Origin: Dehalococcoidia bacterium
GTDB taxonomy: Bacteria; Chloroflexota; Dehalococcoidia; Bin125
Length of the DNA stretch: 64,000 nucleotides
Direction: 5' to 3'
Assembly (NCBI GenBank): GCA_022822375.1
Contig: JAJEBU010000101.1
Coordinates: 5,234-69,233 of the forward strand
Position 1 is the stretch's first letter. Each line of letters opens with the position of its first letter. Shown one piece after another: positions 2,916 through 60,871 of this stretch. A model generated the notes under the pieces. It was not told where the DNA came from. It saw only the letters and a list, made by a program, of their open reading frames with translations, and searched no databases. The position numbers and the translations under genes were made by a program.

Positions 2916-3596
2916 GTGGTGACGACGCCGCAACAGACCGACATTGAGATGCAGCAGCTCCCGCTCACACTCAACCGCGACGGACGTTCGATCGAATTGC
3001 GCCGCCTGGATGAGTCAGATGGCAACAAGCTGATCGAGTTCGGCAGCCGCCAGCCGAGCGAAGATTTGCTCTACGAGGAGCGAGATATCACCAGCGTCGC
3101 CGATGTCGGCGATTGGCTGCACGACACGGAGGCCGGGCGAATCCGCACGGTGATCGCGGAGGAGAACGGCAAGATCATCGGTTACTCGTCGATCGAGCGC
3201 GGGCGTCTGCGCTGGACGCGGCATGTGGCCGAGATTCGCGTCATGGTTGACAAGGATGTGCGACGGCTGGGATTGGGGCACGTGCTCCTGGGCCTGGCGT
3301 TCGAAGCGGCGCTGTCCGACGATGTGGCCAAGATCATTGCGCAAATGACGCCCAACCAGCTCGGCGCGCGCAAGATCTTCGAGCAGTTGGGCTTTGTTGA
3401 GGACGCGGTGCTGACCCGCCACGTCGCATCGGCCGACGGCGAGCTGCATGATCTGATTGTGATGCGCTTCGACACGGCGCAGCGCCTGATCTGCGCGGAG
3501 TGCGGACAGTATGTCCTGACTCTGATCCCGATGCAGGGCAAGCAGCTGTGCTGGTCGTGCTACGAGATGATGGACCTCGAACTGGGCGCGGGTTAG
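2916..3596 (+). CDS. GNAT family N-acetyltransferase with C-terminal CxxC...CxxC zinc-ribbon-like tail
   Basis: GNAT core ('RRLGLGHVLLGLAF') followed by 'ICAECGQ...CWSCYEMM'. A GAGGAGAGGGGGAG ribosome-binding site precedes the GTG start. Confidence 0.6.
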   Translation: MVTTPQQTDIEMQQLPLTLNRDGRSIELRRLDESDGNKLIEFGSRQPSEDLLYEERDITSVADVGDWLHDTEAGRIRTVIAEENGKIIGYSSIERGRLRWTRHVAEIRVMVDKDVRRLGLGHVLLGLAFEAALSDDVAKIIAQMTPNQLGARKIFEQLGFVEDAVLTRHVASADGELHDLIVMRFDTAQRLICAECGQYVLTLIPMQGKQLCWSCYEMMDLELGAG

Positions 3597-3665
3597 CGTC
3601 GCGCGGCTCGTGAACCGTGGACGCTGAGCCACGCCACCGATAAACAGCGATGTGAGGAGAGCGAT

Positions 3666-3905
3666 ATGTCAGAACACCGCGACCACACCTACAAGATCGT
3701 CGAGCTGGTCGGTTCCTCGCCGGACGGGGTGGATCAGGCGATCCGCAACGCGGTCTCGCGCGCGTCGGAGACGCTGAAGAACCTCGATTGGTTCGAAGTG
3801 CGCGAGATTCGCGGGCCGATCCAGGATGGCGAGATCGGCTGGTTCCAGGTCAAGCTGGGCGTGGGATTCCGGATCCTCGACCCATCTGATCTGGCGGACG
3901 ACTAG
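3666..3905 (+). CDS. Dodecin-family flavin-binding protein
   Basis: 79 aa. 'YKIVELVGSS...WFEV.EIRG...DG.I..FQVKL.VGF' matches the dodecin fold consensus. A GAGGAGAG ribosome-binding site is present. Confidence 0.65.
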   Translation: MSEHRDHTYKIVELVGSSPDGVDQAIRNAVSRASETLKNLDWFEVREIRGPIQDGEIGWFQVKLGVGFRILDPSDLADD

Positions 3906-3937
3906 TCAGATCCGCGCGAGCGAAGAACAGCGCGCTG

Positions 3938-4876
3938 ATGATCCGCGGCCCGGACGCCGGCACAGAGTCGAGCGATGCTGCCTTCGATGGCGGGCCAGAC
4001 GAGGCGCTGAGCTGGTGCGAGCGCTACTCGCGCAAGCACGGCGAGAACTTCACGGTCGTCAGCTGGTTCCTGCCGCGCGAGCTGCGGGCACCGATGTTCG
4101 CGGTCTACGCCTTCTGCCGATTCACTGACAACATCGGCGACGATGCGGGCGCGGACCCAGCCGAGCGCTTGGCGCGGCTCGACGCGTGGCAGGCCGATCT
4201 CGAGTGCGCCTTCGACGAGACACCTCCGCAGCACCCGATCAACGTCGCGTTACAGCACGTCGCACGGTCCAAACCGTTGCATGTCGACCCCTTTCGGCGG
4301 CTGATTGAGGCGAACCGGCTGGACCAACGGCAATCGCGCTATGACACGTTCCAGGACGTGTTGGCCTATTGCGATCTGTCGGCCAATCCAGTCGGCGAAA
4401 TGGTGCTGGCGCTGTGGGACGTCGACACGAGCACTGACGAGGGGCGCTATCGGATCGATCTGTCCAACGCGACCTGCACGGCGTTGCAGCTGTCGAATCA
4501 TTGGCAGGATGTGCGCCGCGATTGGCTGGACGCCGGGCGGCTCTATCTGCCGCTGGAGGATCTGCGCGATTTTGACCTCAGCGAGGACGACATCGGTCAA
4601 GGCATCGAGGATCGTCGTTGCCCCGCCGCCTTCCGCGAGATGATGCGCTTCCAGGTTGACCGCGCTGAGGCCTACTTCCGCAAGGGAGAGCGACTGCTGG
4701 ACGAGGTGCCGGATGAGTTAGCAATCGATCTGCGGCTGTTCACGGACGGCGGGCGCGCGGTGCTGCGGGCGATCGAGCAGCAGGACTACGACACGCTGAC
4801 GCGGCGGCCGCGGGTCAGCAAGCAGACGCGCGCCTGGCTGGCGTTGCGCGCCTTCGTGCAACTCAAACTACTCTGA
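3938..4876 (+). CDS. hpnC: Squalene synthase-like protein HpnC (hydroxysqualene synthase)
   Basis: 'YAFCRFTDNIGDD' Asp-rich motif of the squalene/phytoene synthase family. First of two tandem SQS-like genes before hpnE. Confidence 0.85.
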   Translation: MIRGPDAGTESSDAAFDGGPDEALSWCERYSRKHGENFTVVSWFLPRELRAPMFAVYAFCRFTDNIGDDAGADPAERLARLDAWQADLECAFDETPPQHPINVALQHVARSKPLHVDPFRRLIEANRLDQRQSRYDTFQDVLAYCDLSANPVGEMVLALWDVDTSTDEGRYRIDLSNATCTALQLSNHWQDVRRDWLDAGRLYLPLEDLRDFDLSEDDIGQGIEDRRCPAAFREMMRFQVDRAEAYFRKGERLLDEVPDELAIDLRLFTDGGRAVLRAIEQQDYDTLTRRPRVSKQTRAWLALRAFVQLKLL

Positions 4877-4881
4877 TCGCC

Positions 4882-5802
4882 ATGTCGTTCCTGCGCAGCA
4901 CCATGGACCCTGAGATCGCCGAGGCGTATCGCCGCTGCCAGGCGTTCACGCGCGAGCGGGCGACGAACTTCTATGTGGCGTTTTCAGCGCTGCCGCAGCG
5001 CAAGCGGCTCGCGATCTACGCCGCGTACGCCTTTGCGGGAACGGTCGACGACGCCGTTGACGACGCCGGAACGCAGGACGAACGGTCGGCAGCGCTGAGC
5101 ACTGCTCATGGTCTGCTGCGCGCGTCTTACGAGTCGGGCGGCGAGGGGGCAGAGCCCGTCTGGCTCGCCCGCGGCTTGGCCGATGCCGTTCGCAGCTTCG
5201 ACATTCCGCGTGAACACTTCGAGGAGCTCGTGCGCGGGATGGAACAGGACCTGACCACAACGCGCTATCAGACCTGGGACGATCTGGAGCAATACTGCTA
5301 CCGTGCGGCATCCGTGATTGGCCTGGTCTGCATCTGCATCTTCGGCTACGACCGCACGCGCTCAGCAGCCGCCACTCGGACGGCTGTGGCGATGGGCAAG
5401 GCGCTGCAGATCACGAACATCATGCGCGATGTGAAGGAAGACGCGGAGCGTGGGCGGATCTACATCGCCCAGGATGATCTGGCGCGGCACGGTGTGTCGG
5501 AGGGGAACATCCTCGGCGGCGTGTACGATGCTCCGTTTCGGGCGTTGATGGCCGACTACGCGCAGCGGGCGTACGCGCTGTACCGGGAGGGCAGCGATCT
5601 GATTCCGCTGCTCGACGGACCGCGCAGCCGGGCCTGTTGCAATGGGCTGCAAGGCGTGTATCGGATGATTCTGGACGAGATCGTCGCACGCGACTACGAC
5701 GTGCTGAGCCAGCGCGTGTCGCCGTCGCGCTCGGGTCGCGTGCTGCGCCTGCTGGAGCTGTGGCTGCTCGGCGCGCTGCCGAATCTCACGCGAGTCGGCT
5801 GA
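4882..5802 (+). CDS. hpnD: Squalene synthase-like protein HpnD (presqualene diphosphate synthase)
   Basis: 'YAFAGTVDDAVDD' and 'IMRDVKEDAERGRIY' motifs of the SQS/PSY family. Position between hpnC and hpnE. Confidence 0.85.
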   Translation: MSFLRSTMDPEIAEAYRRCQAFTRERATNFYVAFSALPQRKRLAIYAAYAFAGTVDDAVDDAGTQDERSAALSTAHGLLRASYESGGEGAEPVWLARGLADAVRSFDIPREHFEELVRGMEQDLTTTRYQTWDDLEQYCYRAASVIGLVCICIFGYDRTRSAAATRTAVAMGKALQITNIMRDVKEDAERGRIYIAQDDLARHGVSEGNILGGVYDAPFRALMADYAQRAYALYREGSDLIPLLDGPRSRACCNGLQGVYRMILDEIVARDYDVLSQRVSPSRSGRVLRLLELWLLGALPNLTRVG

Positions 5803-35502: not shown

Positions 35503-36690
35503 ATGGACGCGTGGGACGCGGTCGTGATCGGAGCGGGGCCAGCGGGCGCGAACGCAGCGCGGCGACTGGCGGACGGCGGCGCATCGACGCTGCTGCTGGA
35601 GCAGCAGAGACTCCCGCGCTACAAGGCGTGCGGCGGCGGCGTACCGGCGCGCACGCTGCAACTGCTCGGCGACCTCGACATCTCTGCGGTCAGCGAGGGA
35701 CACGTCGACACGATCGACGTGTCCCGCTTTGGACAGCACCAGTTCCGCAAGACATCCGACCGTCTGCTGGCGTGGATGGTGATGCGCGACCGCTTCGATC
35801 AGTTCCTGACCGAGCGAGCGGCGGCTTCTGGTGCGCAGGTGCGGGACGCAACAGCGGTGCAATCGATCGCGCCGGCCGAGTCGTGCTACGAGATCGAGAC
35901 GCCGACGGGCATCGTCCGCGCCCGCCACGTGGTCGCCGCCGACGGCGCGACCGGACCGACGGCGCGCTGGCTCCAGATTCCGTCTGCCAAAACCCGAAGC
36001 GCCGCCTACGAGGTGGAGGTGGCCGCACCACCCCGCGCGCTGGATCACTGGCGCCGCACGGCCAATGTCGATATCGGTTACCGACCATGGGGCTACGGCT
36101 GGGTGTTCCCGAAGGCCGGCGCGTTGTCGATCGGCGTTGTGACCAGTCCCAGGCATGGCCGCGGCATCCGCAAGCACACCGATCGCTACCTGTCGCGCCT
36201 CGGACTCGCCGAGGCGAGCGTGTTGAACGTGCGGGGGCATCCGATTCGTTATCGGCGTTCGACCAACGAGCCGGTCGCCGCCGAGCGGGCGCTGCTGCTC
36301 GGTGACGCCGCGGGGCTGGCCGACGAGTTCACGGCCGAGGGCATTGCGTATGCCGTGCACTCAGCCAACCTCGCCGCCGCGGCGGTGTTGGCTGACGACC
36401 GTCCCGCCGAGAGCTACACGGCGATGGTCGATGGGGAGATTCAGCCGGAACTGAACGCCGCGCGGACGGTGTCGCGGCTCTACTACTGGTGCGTGACGAA
36501 GTGGCCGTGGCTGGCGTTGAGGACATCGAAGCACGTCAACTACCTGTGGCGGGCGTTTTTTCGTGTGATGCGCGGTGAAAGTACGTATCTTGCGGAGTTA
36601 ACACGGTGGATCGGGCCGCGCTTCGCCGGGCGGCTCGGAGCGACGGTCGATGAGCTGGGGAACGAGCGAGATCGACGATGGACGTTCTGA
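35503..36690 (+). CDS. Geranylgeranyl reductase family FAD-dependent oxidoreductase
   Basis: 'WDAVVIGAGPAGANAARRLADGGASTLLLEQ...YKACGGGVP' GGR-family N-terminus. 395 aa. Confidence 0.75.
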   Translation: MDAWDAVVIGAGPAGANAARRLADGGASTLLLEQQRLPRYKACGGGVPARTLQLLGDLDISAVSEGHVDTIDVSRFGQHQFRKTSDRLLAWMVMRDRFDQFLTERAAASGAQVRDATAVQSIAPAESCYEIETPTGIVRARHVVAADGATGPTARWLQIPSAKTRSAAYEVEVAAPPRALDHWRRTANVDIGYRPWGYGWVFPKAGALSIGVVTSPRHGRGIRKHTDRYLSRLGLAEASVLNVRGHPIRYRRSTNEPVAAERALLLGDAAGLADEFTAEGIAYAVHSANLAAAAVLADDRPAESYTAMVDGEIQPELNAARTVSRLYYWCVTKWPWLALRTSKHVNYLWRAFFRVMRGESTYLAELTRWIGPRFAGRLGATVDELGNERDRRWTF

Positions 36691-37337
36691 TCACGATTCT
36701 GGTGATTTGGTTTGGTTTGGGCGGGCTCGCGGCGTTGATCACGCTGGGGATGACCCTTTCCGATCCCAATGATGCGAACATCCTCGACGTCTTGGGAATC
36801 GTGCTCCTTCTCTGCCCGTTTATCGTCGCCTTCGGGCCGTTTGGACTGCTAGTCGTATTGTTCTTCGATAGCGCCACCGAGGAAGGTAAGCGACGCGACG
36901 AGCAAGAGCGTCGCAGGAAGCAAGCCGCCCAACAGAACCTGGACATGCAAGACGCCAGGAGTCGGCGGTCCGCTGAAGAGCAGTACATCCTCTCTCGCCA
37001 GTGGAACGACGCCGACCAACAAGATCGCGCACTGCTGGAAGCTGAGTATCAGCGCCTCAAGCGGGCACGAGAGGAGGAGAATCGGCGGCCAGAGCGGGCG
37101 ATCGTCGAGCGGCTGCGCGCAGAGCAGGAAGCGCGGAGAGCAGCGGAGCAGAATGCCGAACGCATCCGTAGTGCGTACGAAGCGCGGTCGAAGGAGCGTG
37201 AGCTCTCTGCGAAGATACGGCGAATGCGGCAATCAGGATCGACGCCGCCTCAAGCGAGTGAGAACGTCGAACGACCGGAAGGCACGCCCGCTCCAAGAAA
37301 CTGGCGGGAAGAGCGCCCGCCGTTCTGGAGGGATTGA
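36678..37337 (+). CDS. Membrane protein with two N-terminal TM helices and a long charged coiled-coil C-terminus
   Basis: 'ILVIWFGLGGLAALITLG' TM region followed by E/R/Q-rich heptad-like tail. Paralogous N-terminus with the next gene. Confidence 0.5.
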   Translation: MDVLITILVIWFGLGGLAALITLGMTLSDPNDANILDVLGIVLLLCPFIVAFGPFGLLVVLFFDSATEEGKRRDEQERRRKQAAQQNLDMQDARSRRSAEEQYILSRQWNDADQQDRALLEAEYQRLKRAREEENRRPERAIVERLRAEQEARRAAEQNAERIRSAYEARSKERELSAKIRRMRQSGSTPPQASENVERPEGTPAPRNWREERPPFWRD

Positions 37338-39308: not shown

Positions 39309-39659
39309 ATGACCAGGCTCCGCCGGCGGCTCTGGCCGCGCGACCGGCTCGCGATCGCGTTGCTGCTCTACGCCATCTGGATTCCGTTCGTCGTCGTGCT
39401 CATCAGCTACGTTGGCGACAACCAGGACGAGCCAACGAGCAGCGAGGTTCAGAGCGCAGACGAGCCTGACGACTTCGCGGACACGGTCGGCTGGACGTGG
39501 GGCGTGCTCTGGATCGGCTATGCGGCGCTGGCTGGTTGGCTGGCGCGAATCAAGGGACGCGACGCCATCCGCTGGGGACTCGCGAGCCTGTTGACGTTCA
39601 TCGCGCTGTTTCCGTTCCTCGCGGTTGCTCCAGAGCTGGAACGCGAGGACCGACCGTAA
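39309..39659 (+). CDS. Hypothetical small membrane protein
   Basis: Three predicted TM segments ('LAIALLLYAIWIPFVVVLI', 'WGVLWIGYAALAGWL', 'LASLLTFIALFPFLAV'). Confidence 0.45.
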   Translation: MTRLRRRLWPRDRLAIALLLYAIWIPFVVVLISYVGDNQDEPTSSEVQSADEPDDFADTVGWTWGVLWIGYAALAGWLARIKGRDAIRWGLASLLTFIALFPFLAVAPELEREDRP

Positions 39660-39731
39660 CGACCTTGGCCGTCGCCAATCTGCGATACTGCGCGCAATCT
39701 GAACGCTCATACCCGCTCGAAAGCAGGCAAC

Positions 39732-41441
39732 ATGCACGATCTCGTGATTCGCAACGGACTTCTCGTGGACGGGACCGGCGCGCCAGCGCGCGAGGCTGAC
39801 TTGGCCATTGACGGTGGCGTAGTCACGGCGGTTGGAGAGGTCAACGACCTCGGCCGCGAAGAGATTGACGCCGCTGGCATGCTCGTGACGCCCGGCTTCG
39901 TCGACATCCACACGCACTTCGACGGGCAGATCACCTGGGACCCGCTGTTGACGCCGTCCTTCTGGCACGGCGTCACCACCGTCGTGATGGGCAACTGCGG
40001 GGTTGGCTTCGCGCCAGCCGCACCCAACCGTCGCGACTGGCTGATTGGGCTGATGGAAGGCGTCGAGGACATCCCCGGCTCCGCATTGGCCGAGGGCATG
40101 GAGTGGGGCTGGGAGTCGTTCCCCGAGTACCTCGACTTCCTCGATCAGCTGCCCAAGGCGATTGACATCGGCACGCAGGTCCCGCACGGCGCCGTCCGCG
40201 CCTACGTGATGGGCGACCGCGGCGCGCGCAACGAGGACGCCAACCCCGAGGACATCCAGGAGATGGCAGCGATCGTCAAGGAAGGCATCGAGGCTGGCGC
40301 GCTCGGGTTCTCCACGTCGCGCACGCTCGCCCACCGCGCGATCGACGGCGAGCCGGTGCCCGGCACCTTTGCCGCCGAGGACGAGCTGTTCGGCATCGGC
40401 GGAGCGCTCAAGGAGGTTGGCACAGGCGTCTATGAGGTCGCGCCGGCCGGCGTCACCGGCGACGACGCCAATGCGCCCGAGCTCGAGATCGCCTGGATGC
40501 GCAAGCTCTCGGCTGAGATCGAGCGGCCCGTGAGCTTCGCGATGGTGCAGTTCGACAACGACCCCGAAGCCTGGCGCGACGCACTGGATCGGTCGCTCGA
40601 GGCGCTGGAGGACGGCGCTGAGCTGTACCCGCAGGTCGCGGCTCGCGGTATCTCGCTTCTGCTCACCCTGCGCGGACGCCACCCCTTCATCCACTCGGCC
40701 AGCTACCGCGAACTCGACGAGCTCGACTGGACCGAGCGCGCCGCCACGATGCGCGATCCACAGCGCCGCGAACAGATCCTCAGCGAGGTTGAAGCGCCCG
40801 ACACGGCGCTCGGCTTCATCATGTGGGACAAGCTCTACCCGATGACCGATCCGCCCAACTACGAGCCCGAAGCTGAGGATTCGGTCGAGGCCCGCGCTGC
40901 GGCCGCCGATCAGACGGCGCTCGAGTTCGCATACGACTTCCTCGCGCAGGGAGACGGCCAGAACGTGCTGTTCGCACCGCTCTTCAACTACGCCAACGGC
41001 AACCTCGACGCGACGCGGGAGATGATGCTGCACCCGAGAGTGGCGATGGGACTCTCCGACGGCGGCGCGCACTGCGGCGTGATCTGCGACGCGTCGATGC
41101 CCACCTTCATGCTCACCCACTGGGCGCGCGACCGATCGCGCGGCGACACGCTGCCGCTGGAGTGGGTCGTGAAGCGGATGACGCATGACACCGCCGAGCT
41201 CTACGGCCTGGGCGACCGCGGCACGCTCGAGGTGGGCAAGAAGGGCGACGTCAACGTGATCGACTACGACGCGCTTCAGCTCGAACCTCCGCAAGCCGTC
41301 CACGATCTGCCGACCGAGGCGATGCGCCTCATCCAGAAGTCGCGCGGCTACGTCGCCACGATCGTCAGCGGCGAGGTGATCAGCCGCGACGGCGAGGAGA
41401 CGGGCGCGCGTCCGGGTCAGCTCATCCGCGGCGCTCGGTGA
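39732..41441 (+). CDS. N-acyl-D-amino-acid deacylase (D-aminoacylase), amidohydrolase superfamily
   Basis: '[13 protein letters not shown]', '[13 protein letters not shown]' and '[11 protein letters not shown]' are D-aminoacylase hallmarks. 569 aa. Confidence 0.85.
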
Positions 41442-41448
41442 GCGACTG

Positions 41449-42057
41449 GTGAGCATCGAGCGGATCGTCACCAGGCGACTGGTCCACCGTTTGGTCAGCG
41501 AACGCCTGGTAGAACGGGTCTACGACCGGGCGCTGATCGGCAATGTCGAGCGCGGCGGGTACGTCGAGTGCATGATCGAACTCGCGTTGAGCGAAGTCTT
41601 ACCGCCTTGGACACTGACGGCAACGTGGGACGCATGGGATCTGGAGCAGCGCGAAACTGGGGCGCGGATTGAGGTCAAGCAGTCCGCCGCGCTGCAGACA
41701 TGGACCGGCCCACAACGCTCCTCGGCCACGCCGAGTTTCGACATCGCTGCGAGGAGCGGCTACTACCCGAATGGAGGTTCGGACTGGCTTGCGTTGGAGC
41801 AGCCACAGCGGTTCGCGGATGTCTACATCATGGCTTGGCACGGTGCGACTGACGCCGACCTTGTTGATCACCGTCTGCCGGACCAATGGGAGTTCTATGT
41901 CGTCTGCTCAGACGACCTTCCAGCAGGTCAGAAGACGATCAGCCTGAATCCGCTGCGGGAGCTCGCAACGGAGCCTTGCTCCTTCGATGAGCTTGCGGAA
42001 CGCGTCCAAGCGGTGCTCTCTGGGATCGAGCGGTTGAAGGTGGACAACTTGCCTTAG
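41449..42057 (+). CDS. Hypothetical protein with putative PD-(D/E)xK nuclease-fold motifs
   Basis: E ('YVECMIELAL') ... D ('TATWDAWD') ... ExK ('ARIEVKQS') spacing typical of restriction-endonuclease-like fold. Local GC is visibly lower (about 55-60%) than the flanks. Confidence 0.45.
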   Translation: MSIERIVTRRLVHRLVSERLVERVYDRALIGNVERGGYVECMIELALSEVLPPWTLTATWDAWDLEQRETGARIEVKQSAALQTWTGPQRSSATPSFDIAARSGYYPNGGSDWLALEQPQRFADVYIMAWHGATDADLVDHRLPDQWEFYVVCSDDLPAGQKTISLNPLRELATEPCSFDELAERVQAVLSGIERLKVDNLP

Positions 42058-42059
42058 AC

Positions 42060-42089
42060 GAACATGTGTCTTACTATGAACGCATGTTG
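42060..42089 (+). promoter_or_regulatory. Two Cheo/LexA-box-like GAAC-N4-GTTC half-matches overlapping the radical SAM start
   Basis: 'GAACATGTGTCT' (42060..42071) and 'GAACGCATGTTG' (42078..42089). The second is 11/12 to GAAC-N4-GTTC. Sits in an AT-richer patch. Confidence 0.25.
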
Positions 42090-42923
42090 CAGATGTCGCT
42101 CTTCGACCCCAACCCCTCCACCGCCCGCCCCGAGTCTCTGGGCGGCGCTGACGTCATCTATGCCGACTCGGCCTCCATCCTGTCGCGTCCGACCGGGCGG
42201 TTGGCGGATCTGGACTTTGTGATCAATCCGTACCAGGGCTGCACGTTCGCCTGCACCTATTGCTATGCCGCCTTCTTCGTGGCCGAGGAGGCGCAGCGCG
42301 AGCGTTGGGGTCAGTGGGTGCGCGTGAAGACGAATGCGATCGCCAAGCTGCGCGGCTCGCGGCAGGATCTGCGGGGCGCGCGCGTGTTGATGAGCAGCGC
42401 GACGGACCCGTACCAGCCGATTGAACAGCGACTGGAGCTGACGCGTTCGCTGCTGCCGATCATGCAGCAGCGCGGTGTGCATCTCTCCGTGCTCACGCGC
42501 AGCCCGCTCGTCACGCGCGACATCGACCTGTTCAGCGAGTTCGAGCGCATTTCGGTGACCGTCACCATCACCACAGACGACGATGCAGTTCGCCGCAAGT
42601 TCGAGCCGCAGTGCGCGAGCATCGAGCGACGCTTTGCGGCGCTGCGCCAGCTGTCGGACGCGGGATTGCGGACGCGCGTGAACGTCGCGCCGCTGCTGCC
42701 GATGCGTCATCCGCGATCGTTTGCGGAACAGATTCTGGAGGCTGGCGCGTCGCGGGTGCATATCGGCACGTTCCACGAGACGTCGGGTCCGTTTGCAGCG
42801 GGCACTCGGCAGCCAGCGTTGAAGCTGGCGAGCGAGTTCTGTTGGACGGAACAGCGCCGCACGCAGGCGGCGGAGATGCTGCGCAGCTATCTGAATCAGG
42901 ACGGTCGTCGGCTGGCGGCCTAA
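42066..42923 (+). CDS. Radical SAM protein, SPL-like (spore-photoproduct-lyase/'DNA repair photolyase' COG1533 family)
   Basis: 'NPYQGCTFACTYCYA' Cx3Cx2C motif and overall similarity to the SplB-like family. GTG start at 42066. Alternative ATGs at 42084 and 42093. Confidence 0.7.
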   Translation: MSYYERMLQMSLFDPNPSTARPESLGGADVIYADSASILSRPTGRLADLDFVINPYQGCTFACTYCYAAFFVAEEAQRERWGQWVRVKTNAIAKLRGSRQDLRGARVLMSSATDPYQPIEQRLELTRSLLPIMQQRGVHLSVLTRSPLVTRDIDLFSEFERISVTVTITTDDDAVRRKFEPQCASIERRFAALRQLSDAGLRTRVNVAPLLPMRHPRSFAEQILEAGASRVHIGTFHETSGPFAAGTRQPALKLASEFCWTEQRRTQAAEMLRSYLNQDGRRLAA

Positions 42924-42932
42924 CCGCTGCGC

Positions 42933-44078
42933 CTAGAGGCTCGCGTAGACGGCGTCGATCATTGGTTTCCAGCGCGGGTCCGCGCCAAGACCGGCTGACA
43001 TCTGATTCATCACGTAGCCGAAACCGATCTGCGCGTCGGGATCGGCGAAGGCGAGCGATCCGCCGGCGCCAGAATGCCCGAACGTGCGTGGATTCGGGCC
43101 CCATTCGTATCGTCCGCCCGGCGTCGAGAGGATGAAGCCGAGCGAGCGTCGCACGAGGAAGCCAAGCACCAGGTCCTCGCGGACGGCGTGCTCGGTCGTT
43201 CCGCAATGCTCAATCGCGTCGGCCGAGAGCAACCGTCCGCCGCCCTGGGAGAGCTGTCCGTAGATGGCGGCGAGGGCGCGGGCGTTGCCGTGTCCGTTGG
43301 CGGCGGGCAGCTCGGCGGCGCGCCATCCGCGCGAGTTGACATCGCCTGCGAGTCGCGGCGACGCCAGGCTGAGCGCGCGAGCGGCCAGATTGTCCGGTGG
43401 GGCGACGCCGATCGGCCCAGCGCCAGGCGCCTGCAGGAGGTCGGCGGTGCGCGGGTCCTCAGATTCTGGCAGGCCGATGAAGAAGTCGATGCCCAGCGGC
43501 TCGGCGATTTCGTCGCGAACAAACTCGCCGCAGCTTCGGCCGTCGATGCGCCGAATCACCTCGCCCACGAGCCACCCGTAGGTGATGGCGTGGTAGCCCA
43601 TTCCCTCACCCGGCGACCAGTTTGGCTTCTGACGTTCCAGCGCCGCAATCATGCGGTCCCAATCGAGCACGGCGCCGTCGGGCAAGTGCTCGTCAATGGC
43701 GGCGAGACCTGCCTCATGCGTGAGCAGATGCCGAATCAAGATGCTGGACTTGCCGGACTGGCCAAACTGCGGCCAGATGTCGACGACGGACCGCTCGACA
43801 TCGAGCACACCGCGGTCGACCAGCATCGCTGCCGCCACCGCCGCGATCCCTTTGGTTGTGGAGTAGACGTTGGCGATCGTGTCGCGGTCCCAGGCGCGAG
43901 CGCGATTGGCGTCGGCGTGGCCGCCCCACAGGTCGACGACGGTCTCGCCGCCGACCGACACGCAGAGCGATGCACCCACTTCGTCGTGGTCGGACCAGTT
44001 GGCTGCGAAGGCCTCGCGGACCGCCTCGAACTGCGGCGCGCACTCTCCATGCAGCTGCACGTCGGGTCTGGCGGGCAT
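42933..44078 (-). CDS. Serine hydrolase, beta-lactamase/esterase (class C-like) family
   Basis: 'VYSTTKGIAAVAAAML' SxxK active-site motif. 381 aa. Confidence 0.8.
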   Translation of the reverse strand: MPARPDVQLHGECAPQFEAVREAFAANWSDHDEVGASLCVSVGGETVVDLWGGHADANRARAWDRDTIANVYSTTKGIAAVAAAMLVDRGVLDVERSVVDIWPQFGQSGKSSILIRHLLTHEAGLAAIDEHLPDGAVLDWDRMIAALERQKPNWSPGEGMGYHAITYGWLVGEVIRRIDGRSCGEFVRDEIAEPLGIDFFIGLPESEDPRTADLLQAPGAGPIGVAPPDNLAARALSLASPRLAGDVNSRGWRAAELPAANGHGNARALAAIYGQLSQGGGRLLSADAIEHCGTTEHAVREDLVLGFLVRRSLGFILSTPGGRYEWGPNPRTFGHSGAGGSLAFADPDAQIGFGYVMNQMSAGLGADPRWKPMIDAVYASL

Positions 44079-48175: not shown

Positions 48176-48996
48176 GATGCCGCCTCGGCGATCACAATCA
48201 GGCGGTCGCCATCGCCGGCTGGAGCGAAGAACCAGGAGCCGAACCAATCGATCGGATGCAGACCGGCTTCAGCGAGCAGGCCTGCCATTTCGCCGGCGTT
48301 GAGGTTAACCCGCAGCGGAAATCGGGCGAGTGAGCGTTGGACGGCACCCTCGCGGCCGATGGCATCGTACTGGTACGTGATCCAGGCAATGGGGAGCGCC
48401 TGATCGAGCGCGTCGCCGCACTCTCGATCTAGCGCGAGCTCCTGCGCCGCGGACTTCGTGACCAGCGCACCGGAGTCGGCCTGTCGGGTCCACTCGAGGC
48501 GCAGTTGCGGCGGCGTCGGATCCAGATCGTCGGGACGAGGCGCGGTCCAATCGATGATGAGTTGTCCGCCCGCCGCTAGATGCTGCCGAGCGTTGCGCAA
48601 GGCGGCGAGCTGATCGCTGCGGCAGAGGAGGTGCTGGAAGCTGGAGAGTCCGCAGACGACGCGGTCGAACTCGCCGATCGGGGTCATGCAACGCATGTCT
48701 GCGCGGCGCACATCGACGCCGGTGCCGCGCATGCGCGGCTCGCCGATGGCGAGCATCGCGGGGGAGGAATCAACAGCGGTGACCTGGCGCCCAGCTGCGG
48801 CGAGGTCGACGGCGATGCGGCCGCTGCCGGCACCGAGTTCGAGCACGCGCTGCGCGGGCGCGGTGAGTTGCAGCAGCATCTCGATATCCGCCGAGAGCGG
48901 GCCAAAATCGAGGTCGTACCAGGGCGCAATGGTTCGCAGCGCTTGTTCCTGATCGTCCGCCGACCACGCGAGAGGATCGTCCACCGCGGCCTCCAC
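48172..48996 (-). CDS. Class I SAM-dependent methyltransferase
   Basis: 'VLELGAGSGRIAVDLA' motif I and 'LAAGGQLIIDW'. Its stop overlaps the lipoprotein start (ATGA). Confidence 0.75.
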   Translation of the reverse strand: MEAAVDDPLAWSADDQEQALRTIAPWYDLDFGPLSADIEMLLQLTAPAQRVLELGAGSGRIAVDLAAAGRQVTAVDSSPAMLAIGEPRMRGTGVDVRRADMRCMTPIGEFDRVVCGLSSFQHLLCRSDQLAALRNARQHLAAGGQLIIDWTAPRPDDLDPTPPQLRLEWTRQADSGALVTKSAAQELALDRECGDALDQALPIAWITYQYDAIGREGAVQRSLARFPLRVNLNAGEMAGLLAEAGLHPIDWFGSWFFAPAGDGDRLIVIAEAAS

Positions 48997-49067
48997 TCAC
49001 CCGCTGCGCTGCTCAATGCCAGAGTATCAGTGATGTGCAGGATCAGCGGCGGCGATAGGCTGCACGC

Positions 49068-49598
49068 ATGACGGACACGCCAACCACACGTGACTTGGTG
49101 GCCCAGTACATCCGCGCTGTGCCCGACTTTCCGATTGACGGCATTCTGTTTCGCGACATCACGCCGCTGCTTGGTCAGCCGTCGGCGTTGGACGCGGCGA
49201 TTACGTGGCTGGCCGAGCAGTGCGCGGGCGCGGATGCGATTGTGGGCATCGAGTCGCGCGGGTTCATCCTGGGTGCGCCGGTCGCGCAGCGGCTCCAGCT
49301 GCCGTTCGTGCCGATTCGGAAGGCGGGCAAGCTGCCGGCGAAGACGTACGCTCGCTCCTACGACCTGGAGTATGGGTCGGCGACGATTGAGATGCACGCG
49401 GACGGTCTGCGCTCAGGCGCCCGTGCGGCGCTCGTTGACGATCTGCTTGCCACCGGCGGCACCGCAGAGGCGGCGGCTCAGCTGATCATGCAGTCGGGCG
49501 CTGAAGTCTCGACCGCTGTGTTCCTGATCGAACTGGCAGAGTTGAATGGCCGCGAACGGCTGCAGCCGCTGGAGGCCGTTTGTCTGCTGGACTACTAG
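49068..49598 (+). CDS. apt: Adenine phosphoribosyltransferase
   Basis: 'FRDITPLL', 'IVGIESRGFILG' and 'LVDDLLATGGT' PRPP-binding motif. 176 aa. Confidence 0.9.
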   Translation: MTDTPTTRDLVAQYIRAVPDFPIDGILFRDITPLLGQPSALDAAITWLAEQCAGADAIVGIESRGFILGAPVAQRLQLPFVPIRKAGKLPAKTYARSYDLEYGSATIEMHADGLRSGARAALVDDLLATGGTAEAAAQLIMQSGAEVSTAVFLIELAELNGRERLQPLEAVCLLDY

Positions 49599-59352: not shown

Positions 59353-59733
59353 TTAGCGCTTGACGGCGCGGCGTCGACCGGCGACGGTCTTCTTGGAGCC
59401 GCGGCGGGTGCGCGCGTTGGTTCGGGTGCGCTGGCCGTGCATGGGCAGGTTGCGTCGGTGACGCTGCCCGCGGTAGCAGTTGATGTCGATTAGGCGCTGA
59501 ACGTTGCCGCGAACGACGCGGCGCAGGTCGCCTTCGACGATGTAGTCGTGGTCCACGATTTCGCGGATGCGGGCCAACTCGGCGTCCGACAGTTCCTGGA
59601 TGCGACGGTCGGGGTCGATGTTGGCCTTTTCGACGATTTCGCGGGCGCGCGTCGCACCGATGCCGAAGATGTAGCGCAGCGCGAACGGCGTTTTCTTGTT
59701 GTCCGGGACGTCCACGCCCGAGATTCTCGCCAT
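59353..59733 (-). CDS. rpsM: 30S ribosomal protein S13
   Basis: '[26 protein letters not shown]' from the ATG at 59733. The longer ORF to 60231 is a false 5' extension. Confidence 0.95.
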
Positions 59734-59777
59734 GCCCTCGTTCCCTTCTCCGTCAGCCGATCGATCGCGGCGGAAGT

Positions 59778-60062
59778 TCAGTTCTTGAAGCGGTAGACGA
59801 CCCGCCCGCGGGTGAGGTCGTATTCCGATAGTTCGACGAGCACTCGGTCGCCACGCAGGACTCGGATGTGGTGCTGCCTCATCTTGCCGGCGAGGTGCGC
59901 GAGCACCTCGTGACCATTGGGCAGTTCGACCCGAAACGTCGCGTTGGGCAAGAGCTCCTTGACGACGCCCTCGACCTCGATCTTGTCCTGTTTGGGCGGC
60001 GGAGCCGGGGCGGCCGCTCGTCGCGGCCGCTTGCCACCGCCAGACTTTCTGTTTCTCGCCAC
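59778..60062 (-). CDS. infA: Translation initiation factor IF-1 with basic/Pro-rich N-terminal extension
   Basis: '[67 protein letters not shown]' IF-1 core. The only in-frame start after the map stop is GTG (or the adjacent TTG), giving '[27 protein letters not shown]' before the core. Confidence 0.8.
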
Positions 60063-60097
60063 CAACCCCCCGATGCTTGTGTCGTGCTGTGGTTCGG

Positions 60098-60871
60098 TCA
60101 GCCCTGTGTAAGGATTTCGGCCGGCGCGTCCTGGCGGAGCGCGACGGTGTGTTCGAAGTGCGCCGACAGGCTGCCGTCGGCGGTGACGACGGTCCAGCCA
60201 TCGTCGAGCACGGCGGTGGCTGGATCGCCAATGGTCGCCATAGGCTCCAGGGCGAGAACCATGCCGCGCCTCATCGTCATGCCGGTGCCGCGTCGACCGT
60301 GATTGGGCATAGTGGGCGGCTCGTGCATGGCGCGGCCGATTCCATGCCCGACATAGCCTCGGACGACGCCGTATCCCGCAGATTCTATCACTTCCTGGAT
60401 GGCTGCGCCGATATCGCCCTTGCGAACACCGATGCGGGCGACCGAGATTCCCGCCATAAGTGACTCGCGGGTGACATCCAGCAGGCGTTGCGCCTCGCTG
60501 GTGATGGTTCCGACGGCGAAGGTGCGGGCGGAATCGCCGACCCAGCCGTTGATCGTGGCACCGAGGTCGATGGAGATGATGTCGCCATCCTCGAGCCGCC
60601 GTTCGGTGGCGAAGCCGTGCACGATCTCCTCGTTGACCGATGCGCAGATCGTGTGCGGGAAGCCCTGGTACCCGAGGAAGGTGGGGGTGATATCGAGCCG
60701 CGCGTACTTGTCGATGACGTATTGGTCCAGATCCGACAGCTTGACGCCCGGCTTGAGCATCTCGCCGAGCTCGCTGAGCGTCTCGCCGACCATCCGGCCC
60801 GCGGGCCGCATCATGTCGATCTCGGCGTCGCTCTTCAGAATCACTTGCCGCGCTCGTTGCTCTGTCGTCAT
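60098..60871 (-). CDS. map: Type I methionine aminopeptidase
   Basis: '[11 protein letters not shown]' and 'EPMATIG' metal-ligand regions. 257 aa. Confidence 0.9.

Follow-up and report, generated by a model that had tools for sequence, protein, structure and literature searches.

A family of predicted PD-(D/E)xK nucleases that matches no named family adjoins a COG1533-type radical SAM gene in Dehalococcoidia, very probably by synteny and not as a dedicated module

We analysed a stretch of 64,000 nucleotides of Dehalococcoidia bacterium DNA (GenBank assembly GCA_022822375.1, contig JAJEBU010000101.1), hereafter called the window, in which two adjacent plus-strand genes are referred to as X and R. 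X (41449..42057, with a GTG start) encodes a 202-residue protein of predicted PD-(D/E)xK nuclease fold from an unannotated family. R (42084..42923) encodes a 279-residue radical S-adenosylmethionine (SAM) protein, assigned by Pfam and NCBIfam matches to the COG1533 SplB-like, PA0069/Rv2578c type. The slot in which X lies is anchored upstream by a conserved amidohydrolase gene (Amidohydro_3, Pfam E-value 5e-49) at 39732..41441 on the plus strand. The three genes are co-oriented, with 7 nucleotides between the amidohydrolase and X and 26 nucleotides between the X stop codon and the R ATG; a gene of the beta-lactamase family lies downstream of R on the opposite strand. A preliminary description, made from the letters of this stretch, had read a 202-residue open reading frame (ORF) followed by a radical SAM ORF, as we find at these coordinates, and had proposed that the two act together. 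The comparisons reported below indicate that X and R are very probably not a dedicated module.

The AlphaFold2 model of X was confident, with a predicted local distance difference test (pLDDT) score of 94 and a predicted template modelling (pTM) score of 0.88, and the restriction-endonuclease (PD-(D/E)xK) core fold, with its alpha-beta-beta-beta-alpha-beta order, was confirmed at the level of the predicted structure. In the model E40 is located on the helix of residues 32-46, D64 immediately precedes the strand of residues 65-67, and E75-V-K77 is on the strand of residues 72-80. A Foldseek search with the model returned NhoI at the top (E-value 2.5e-4), followed by I-Ssp6803I (PDB 2OST, a PD-(D/E)xK homing endonuclease) and the SPARDA nuclease domain, and a fold search of BFVD gave only distant small phage PD-(D/E)xK proteins. 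Alignment of 55 homologues revealed an invariant K77, with E40, D64 and E75 each conserved in at least 90% of the sequences; the conserved positions of these 55 members are N32, R35, Y38-V39-E40, W60, W63-D64, R73 and E75-x-K77-Q78-S79. The complete E-D-E-K set was present in 82 of 91 X copies extracted from genomes, and plasmid and phage homologues of about 30% identity retained E40, D64 and K77. Model and conservation together show E40, D64 and E75-x-K77 to be the predicted metal-binding and catalytic site, encoded at 41566..41679 on the plus strand (E40 at 41566-41568, D64 at 41638-41640, E75 at 41671-41673 and K77 at 41677-41679). The motifs ECMIE, WDAWD and IEVKQS noted in the preliminary description are present and contain these four residues, and its assignment of the protein to the PD-(D/E)xK fold agrees with structure prediction and fold search.

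X could not be placed in any named sequence family. No match was found in Pfam, NCBIfam, PADLOC or PHROGs at E-values up to 1, and searches of Protein Data Bank (PDB) sequences by sequence and profile at E-values up to 10 gave nothing but a chance match to an ABC transporter (E-value 0.15). Remote plasmid homologues likewise had no named-family match. Judged by these searches, X represents a new family in a very well known superfamily. A word-indexed search returned 209 homologues, and a profile built from 55 members retrieved 2,577 representatives of 50%-identity clusters at E-values up to 1e-3, or 1,528 at E-values up to 1e-10. Most of the relatives found with the profile are 170-230 residues long, and the remote plasmid and phage homologues are all annotated as 'hypothetical protein'.

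X differs in base composition from its surroundings. Its GC content is 61.7%, against 65.8% and 66.1% in the 5-kb flanks and 68.0% in the amidohydrolase gene. The dip is real (about 2 standard deviations, within the lowest 3.3% of segments of equal size) but amounts to 4-6 points absolute, about half of the roughly 10% stated previously. GC at third codon positions (GC3) is 0.75 in X against 0.80-0.88 in most genes of the window; three other ORFs in the window (36678-37334, 48687-49397 and 59356-60231) have GC3 values of 0.68-0.71, below even that of X.

A scan of species-representative genomes gave 167 X relatives, and 80 of their loci were fetched and compared; individual comparison loci are cited by L numbers. 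R adjoined X in 11 of the 80 loci by tblastn, and all 11 fall into one syntenic Dehalococcoidia group. L004 and L005 also show the pair, but they represent a duplicate contig of L017 and are outside this count. Conservation of the gene pair, which the preliminary description had named as a check, was thus seen in 11 other distinct loci but is confined to a single syntenic lineage. X occurs without R in the other 69 loci. Among syntenic loci, L014 contains three X copies and no R, and others contain two or three tandem X copies ahead of R. Conversely, the R orthologues of L088, L090 and L091 (76%, 74% and 65% identity, respectively) are X-less in the same synteny as that of the window, namely amidohydrolase, R, beta-lactamase-family, luciferase-like, thioredoxin and PlsX genes. 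The spacer between amidohydrolase and R measures 114 nucleotides in L088 and 197 nucleotides in L090. The L090 spacer (4804-5000) encodes a relic of X, with an N-terminal part that contains in-frame stops (GRGQYVECMV-stop-LALSQIRPP-stop) and a C-terminal end (…KADLPI-stop) that carries the -35 element of the downstream R promoter; since both ends of X are preserved, X has been deleted internally in this genome. In L091 the slot between amidohydrolase and R holds an unrelated 488-residue ORF (3264-4730) with an N-terminal hydrophobic segment, a HEYAH motif and no Pfam match, and hence the slot accepts different cargo. Overall, X is present, absent, a relic or present in two or three copies at the Dehalococcoidia slot.

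The two genes also differ in their divergence. Between L050 and the window, flanking proteins are 90-99% identical and R is 95% identical, while X is only 56% identical; at the nucleotide level, an identity of about 87-90% drops to 40-70% only between the start and the stop of X. The amidohydrolase is 83-95% identical across all syntenic Dehalococcoidia loci, with or without X, and belongs to no module. X and R therefore dissociate in both directions, and this dissociation, the discordant divergence and the predicted separate promoter of R described below contradict the earlier proposal of a nuclease and radical SAM module for lesion repair or defence. The adjacency of X and R is lineage-specific synteny, and the two genes are very probably functionally independent. 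R evolves faster than its neighbours, being 71-78% identical where the amidohydrolase, SGL, luciferase-like and thioredoxin proteins are about 90-97% identical. In two X-less genomes a GC-rich inverted repeat (CCCCTCTCCCC…GGGGAGAGGG) directly follows the amidohydrolase stop codon (L088 4887-4960 and L090 4804-4870) and may be a terminator or a repetitive extragenic palindromic (REP)-like element; the window, where X begins 7 nucleotides past that stop, lacks it.

In 15 Dehalococcoidia R orthologues, alignment of the sequence ahead of the gene revealed a -35 element, a spacer of about 17 nucleotides, a -10 element and an ATG 6-8 nucleotides further on. The -35 element is TTGCCT, TTGACT or TTGCGC in most orthologues and more variable in a few, and the -10 element is TACTAT or TACTCT. 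The predicted promoter of the window (42049..42077, plus strand) consists of the -35 sequence TTGCCT at 42049-42054, which coincides with the last two codons of X, a 17-nucleotide spacer and the -10 sequence TACTAT at 42072-42077. A consensus promoter and terminator scan of 39500-43200 found nothing; the window promoter has 8 of 12 consensus positions where the scan threshold is 9, and the promoter call therefore rests on conservation among the orthologues. This conservation shows a promoter of R's own that runs past the stop codon of X, so that R would be equipped for expression independent of X. Gene callers use the ATG as the start of R (42084 in the window), which gives 279 residues in most orthologues read and 278 in L090. 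A nine-nucleotide gap between the genes, as described previously, holds for a GTG at 42066, but that GTG lies inside the conserved promoter and candidate operator. In the window the ATG is only 6 nucleotides past the -10 element and has no Shine-Dalgarno sequence, and this arrangement indicates that the R mRNA is probably leaderless.

The spacer contains GAACATGTGTCT at 42060-42071, the window copy of a conserved TAGAAC-N4-GTACTA palindrome. The palindrome, as TAGAAC-N4-GTAC(TA), extends from the spacer into the -10 element and was recognisable in 15 of 15 orthologues, which were compiled as 13 distinct sites; a position weight matrix of these 13 sites had its sole match in the 64-kb window at the site before R. 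The exact motif GAACNNNNGTWC was no commoner in the window than expected by chance, and its single instance is inside a gene. The palindrome before R is possibly a LexA operator. It resembles the LexA boxes that control the COG1533 group elsewhere (PMC4951493; PMC3381160); the LexA box of Firmicutes and Actinobacteria is GAAC-N4-GTTC, and variants reported for Chloroflexi are cited in PMC4951493. LexA regulates COG1533 splB genes in Actinobacteria, Proteobacteria and Verrucomicrobia, and it has been proposed that these genes belong to the core of the SOS response (PMC4951493). A LexA chromatin immunoprecipitation sequencing peak is found in vivo at Rv2578c/Rv2579 of M. tuberculosis (PMC3381160), and SplB-like radical SAM genes are tied to SOS components by gene neighbourhood (PMC3765255). 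A perfect GAAC-N4-GTTC palindrome, GAACGTCAGTTC, occurs in L004 (3743-3754) and L016 (3730-3741) within an unannotated gap of about 900 nucleotides between SGL and amidohydrolase genes, and could be another LexA-type site.

R matched the Pfam Radical_SAM family with an E-value of 3e-14. Its CTFACTYC sequence, which the preliminary description had quoted for the radical SAM gene, is the CxxxCxxC motif for the [4Fe-4S]/SAM cluster (C53, C57 and C60 counted from the ATG; 42240..42263, plus strand, by translation). The top three NCBIfam models were PA0069 (E-value 5.5e-38), mobile pair B (8e-35) and Rv2578c (4.5e-30), and all scores were far below the cut-offs; against the equivalog cut-offs, R scored 131 bits versus 360 for PA0069 and 105 bits versus 430 for Rv2578c. 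A search for R homologues returned 1583 proteins at E-values up to 1e-10, with source names 'radical SAM protein' or 'DNA repair photolyase'. On these profile scores R is assigned to the COG1533 SplB-like, PA0069/Rv2578c-type proteins at superfamily level only. R shares the radical SAM core and the CxxxCxxC motif with SOS-regulon COG1533 proteins such as M. tuberculosis Rv2578c, the P. aeruginosa PA0069 family and Verrucomicrobia splB, although it is shorter than the PA0069 and Rv2578c profiles (279 versus 317-348 residues). It has the superfamily and the cluster motif in common with spore photoproduct lyase (SPL, SplB proper) but is not an SPL orthologue: R scored 16 bits against 400 for TIGR04070 (NCBIfam) and 8.9 against 27 for PF20903 (Pfam), and the earlier label of an SPL-like COG1533 protein stands at superfamily level only. 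Membership in a radical SAM mobile pair (TIGR04470/TIGR04471) was also rejected, with 121 bits against 410 and no adjacent second radical SAM gene. The papers cited here on COG1533 and the SOS response (PMC4951493; PMC3381160; PMC3765255) name no biochemical function beyond a presumed photolyase-like role, and R is an ordinary member of this known, biochemically unsolved, SOS-linked group. A 47%-identical R homologue occurs in L092 (5001-5855) and L093 (3411-4265), where the gene order is N6/N4 methyltransferase, McrB, McrC, TIR-domain protein, radical SAM and UvrD-like helicase. The COG1533-type gene of these two loci apparently lies inside a defence island and has no GAAC-N4-GTAC motif upstream.

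The neighbourhood of the window is metabolic and not a defence island. On the window's contig, as represented in public assemblies, the order is flavin adenine dinucleotide (FAD) monooxygenase, HhH-GPD glycosylase, SGL, amidohydrolase, X and R, followed by beta-lactamase-family, luciferase-like, thioredoxin and PlsX genes; the close relatives of the window are labelled as Dehalococcoidia metagenome-assembled genomes (MAGs). All-against-all clustering of 3,853 ORFs from X loci gave no partner common outside the synteny block; large clusters of minus-strand ORFs at these loci probably consist of frames antisense to X, in DNA of high GC content. Pfam analysis of 128 immediate X neighbours returned mostly metabolic families, with a minority of helix-turn-helix (HTH) or MqsA-like proteins, IS110 and DDE transposases, TrwC relaxase, ParE, Vsr and ankyrin proteins, and the families listed for these neighbours include no methyltransferase and no radical SAM family. 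There is no cognate methyltransferase beside X in the window, and a methyltransferase motif expression, which is a crude test, matched within about 6 kb in 1 of 79 X loci; X as the restriction subunit of a Type II restriction-modification system was rejected on the lack of an adjacent cognate methyltransferase. Each PADLOC family model matched at most 1-2 X-neighbour proteins, so that a defence-island setting, which the preliminary description had suggested checking, was found neither in the metabolic neighbourhood of the window nor, save rarely, elsewhere. In PADLOC-DB v2, X had no match and R only a weak viperin-type match (E-value 0.013), and neither gene could be assigned to an anti-phage defence system known to that database.

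The X family is widely spread. The 80 loci span Dehalococcoidia, Acidimicrobiia, Acidobacteriota, Alpha- and Gammaproteobacteria, Gemmatimonadota, Rhodothermales, Spirochaetia, Thermodesulfobacteriota and others, and a neighbour-joining tree of X is only partly taxonomic, with phyla intermixed. One tight clade (L061, L054, L059 and L063) brings together Chloroflexota, Gammaproteobacteria, Terriglobia and Gemmatimonadota, and another (L070 and L080) Longimicrobiales with Bryobacterales. X is seated between unrelated housekeeping genes and occasionally in a plasmid or a phage lysogeny module. The tandem copies of Dehalococcoidia fall in the tree into three or four old paralogue lineages. In some arrays the copy farthest upstream no longer has the full catalytic set (it reads E-A-D-K or E-T-A-R) while the copy proximal to R is intact; array copies at L010 4538-5131, L014 4212-4805, L011 4598-5143 and L013 4490-5035 belong to such live and dead paralogue pairs. 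X is thus an accessory, hypervariable single-gene cassette without a fixed partner. Many of the MAGs that carry X may be associated with sponges, as suggested by record names (for example, Candidatus Spongiisociaceae) and by bin-name conventions.

Several X relatives have additional domains. ORFs of about 525-563 residues (L054 4052-5638, L059 4933-6510, L061 1291-2865 and L063 4870-6558) join a 340-residue N-terminal domain of no known kind to X; the domain has no Pfam match and bears its own D…EAK motif (RLDVLQ…FVIEAKFD). The ORFs of L054, L059 and L061 are highly similar and that of L063 is more divergent, and the labels of their MAGs comprise Gammaproteobacteria, Terriglobia, Chloroflexota and Gemmatimonadota; this similarity across phyla suggests recent cross-phylum transfer. 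In L057 (4867-6561) an HTH_3 plus Peptidase_M78 (ImmA/IrrE-like) region, and in L062 (5482-6498) and L080 (5491-6495) an MqsA-like HTH, lies upstream and in frame with X with no stop between; each of these units may be a genuine fusion or may consist of two genes, the second starting internally. An MqsA-like HTH is also fused to or in frame with X in P0287, and it was the only domain found by Pfam in the N- and C-terminal extensions of multidomain X members. Remote homologues were found on 9 plasmids and in 3 phage records. A Priestia plasmid has the order Vsr, X-like, HNH endonuclease, C5 methyltransferase and MspI endonuclease, Faecalibacterium phage FP_Brigit has HTH repressor, X-like and serine integrase, and the remaining plasmid settings vary.

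Type IV restriction enzymes are modification-dependent and are not expected to have a methyltransferase partner. X was compared with the structures of NhoI and the Eco15I N-terminal domain (PDB 8Q5N, 8RPX and 8Q5M), which are small PD-(D/E)xK Type IV proteins dependent on 5-methylcytosine. X resembles them in being a small protein with a PD-(D/E)xK core, and it lacks a recurrent methyltransferase partner, as expected of a modification-dependent enzyme. Identity is only 14-16%, with no detectable sequence relationship, and modification dependence of X would be an analogy. X also exceeds them by about 50 residues and has two helices at the N-terminus and a helical C-terminal part. Type II enzymes such as PvuII and EcoRV differ in adjoining a cognate methyltransferase, and the Hjc and RecU Holliday-junction resolvases differ from the accessory, hypervariable X in being conserved core genes. 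With I-Ssp6803I X has in common that a single small nuclease gene is involved and that its presence-or-absence behaviour resembles that of a homing gene. The gene for I-Ssp6803I resides in a group I intron, whereas X, 13% identical to it, is free-standing in intergenic slots.

The role we favour for X is that of a methyltransferase-independent restriction-type endonuclease, which would cut foreign DNA, possibly DNA that carries modifications, as NhoI and other Type IV enzymes do, with a variable middle segment (about residues 85-138) that would set its specificity. R, with a promoter containing a putative LexA-type GAAC-N4-GTAC operator and a probably leaderless transcript, would be a damage-inducible repair gene like its relatives elsewhere, and X, lying upstream of that operator, would be outside LexA-type control. 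The combined statement, that X is a stand-alone restriction-type nuclease and R an independent damage-type gene brought together by synteny, is held with moderate confidence; the restriction-type role specifically is a tentative assignment for which the odds are somewhat below even. It is a possible, slightly more speculative reading that the X family as a whole comprises new, large, solitary restriction-type nucleases exchanged across phyla, as a one-gene defence or selfish element outside classical islands. As part of the same reading, this exchange would apparently occur often among putatively sponge-associated bacteria, a habitat taken from record names.

The main rival for X, and a close second to the restriction-type role, is a homing-like selfish lifestyle, in which a free-standing endonuclease would cut X-less alleles, be copied by repair and pass through cycles of invasion, decay and loss. 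Single-gene insertion between housekeeping genes, usually with no adjacent integrase or transposase and usually outside defence islands, is what such a gene would show, as are the occupied, empty and relic versions of one slot and the mixing of phyla in the tree. We nevertheless consider it unlikely: X lies in neither an intron nor an intein, the slot is filled across deep divergence (flanks 82-92% identical) and contains old paralogues in a pattern that resembles long vertical retention, tandem arrays with catalytically dead copies are atypical of homing genes, the catalytic site kept in 82 of 91 copies reveals little of the expected decay, and the very many insertion contexts would demand very many specificities. 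A role of X as the toxic effector of a toxin-antitoxin or abortive-infection module, under an HTH or ImmA/IrrE-type protein (the latter a protease) and with solo copies orphaned or domesticated, would account for the HTH or MqsA-like regions fused or in frame upstream in L062, L080 and P0287, the HTH and Peptidase_M78 region of L057, the X-like gene after the repressor gene of FP_Brigit, and the ParE and Fic/VbhA modules near some X loci. The arrangement at a minority of X loci is compatible with such an HTH-controlled toxin. HTH_3, the commonest family of this kind, was found in only 5 of 64 upstream neighbours, most loci including that of the window have no candidate antitoxin, and hundreds of genomes would not be expected to keep an unrestrained general nuclease toxin as an intact solo gene, which makes this role quite improbable for the family.

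The idea that X and R work as a dedicated pair in lesion processing or defence, in which DNA that is damaged or foreign would be acted on by the radical SAM enzyme and cut by the nuclease, gains some appeal from the co-oriented adjacency in the window and the 11 other loci, from the plausibly DNA-acting nature of both products and from the occurrence of a COG1533-type enzyme in the McrBC, TIR, radical SAM and UvrD island. The two-way dissociation has already largely refuted this model. R is missing from 69 of 80 X loci and radical SAM families from the immediate neighbours listed, X-less R orthologues stand in identical synteny, the X copies of L014 have no R, X and R of L050 have diverged to 56% and 95% identity, and R has its own predicted conserved promoter past the X stop; we regard the module as very unlikely. 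Hardly any weight is left for X as a housekeeping repair or recombination nuclease, such as an Hjc/RecU-like resolvase or a lesion-specific nicking enzyme. The HhH-GPD glycosylase gene and the SplB-like R in the neighbourhood would suit it, but the distribution of X is patchy, mixes phyla and varies between close relatives, X shows 56% identity between flanks of 95-99% identity, multi-copy arrays contain dead paralogues, and the GC3 of X is atypical.

Some observations count against our proposal for X and R. The nuclease activity of the X family and its substrate, DNA or RNA, modified or not, are predicted only. X lies mostly outside defence islands and has no PADLOC match, and the defence reading is weakened accordingly. 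The second half-site of the palindrome before R is GTAC, GTAT or GTCT, not GTTC, and overlaps the -10 element, so that its conservation could reflect the promoter alone. Neither lexA nor recA was found by tblastn, with E. coli LexA and RecA as queries, in the window or in 93 loci. The tight packing and co-orientation of the genes leave room for co-transcription of X and R by read-through.

Had the nuclease and the radical SAM protein formed a system, it would have been a DNA-damage or defence module of a new kind; with the pairing being an accident of synteny, the lead of a two-gene system can be closed. The COG1533 superfamily of R is linked to DNA damage in the literature, and the candidate operator before R, if true, would extend the link between LexA and COG1533 to Dehalococcoidia that are putatively sponge-associated according to record names. 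X belongs to a sizeable, wholly unannotated PD-(D/E)xK family whose predicted active site is clean, and it behaves as an accessory gene, with replacement of alleles at one fixed slot and occurrence in many phyla. Because its members lie mostly between housekeeping genes, the family would be missed by discovery based on defence islands, and X makes a reasonable candidate for a selfish or restriction-type nuclease encoded by a single gene.

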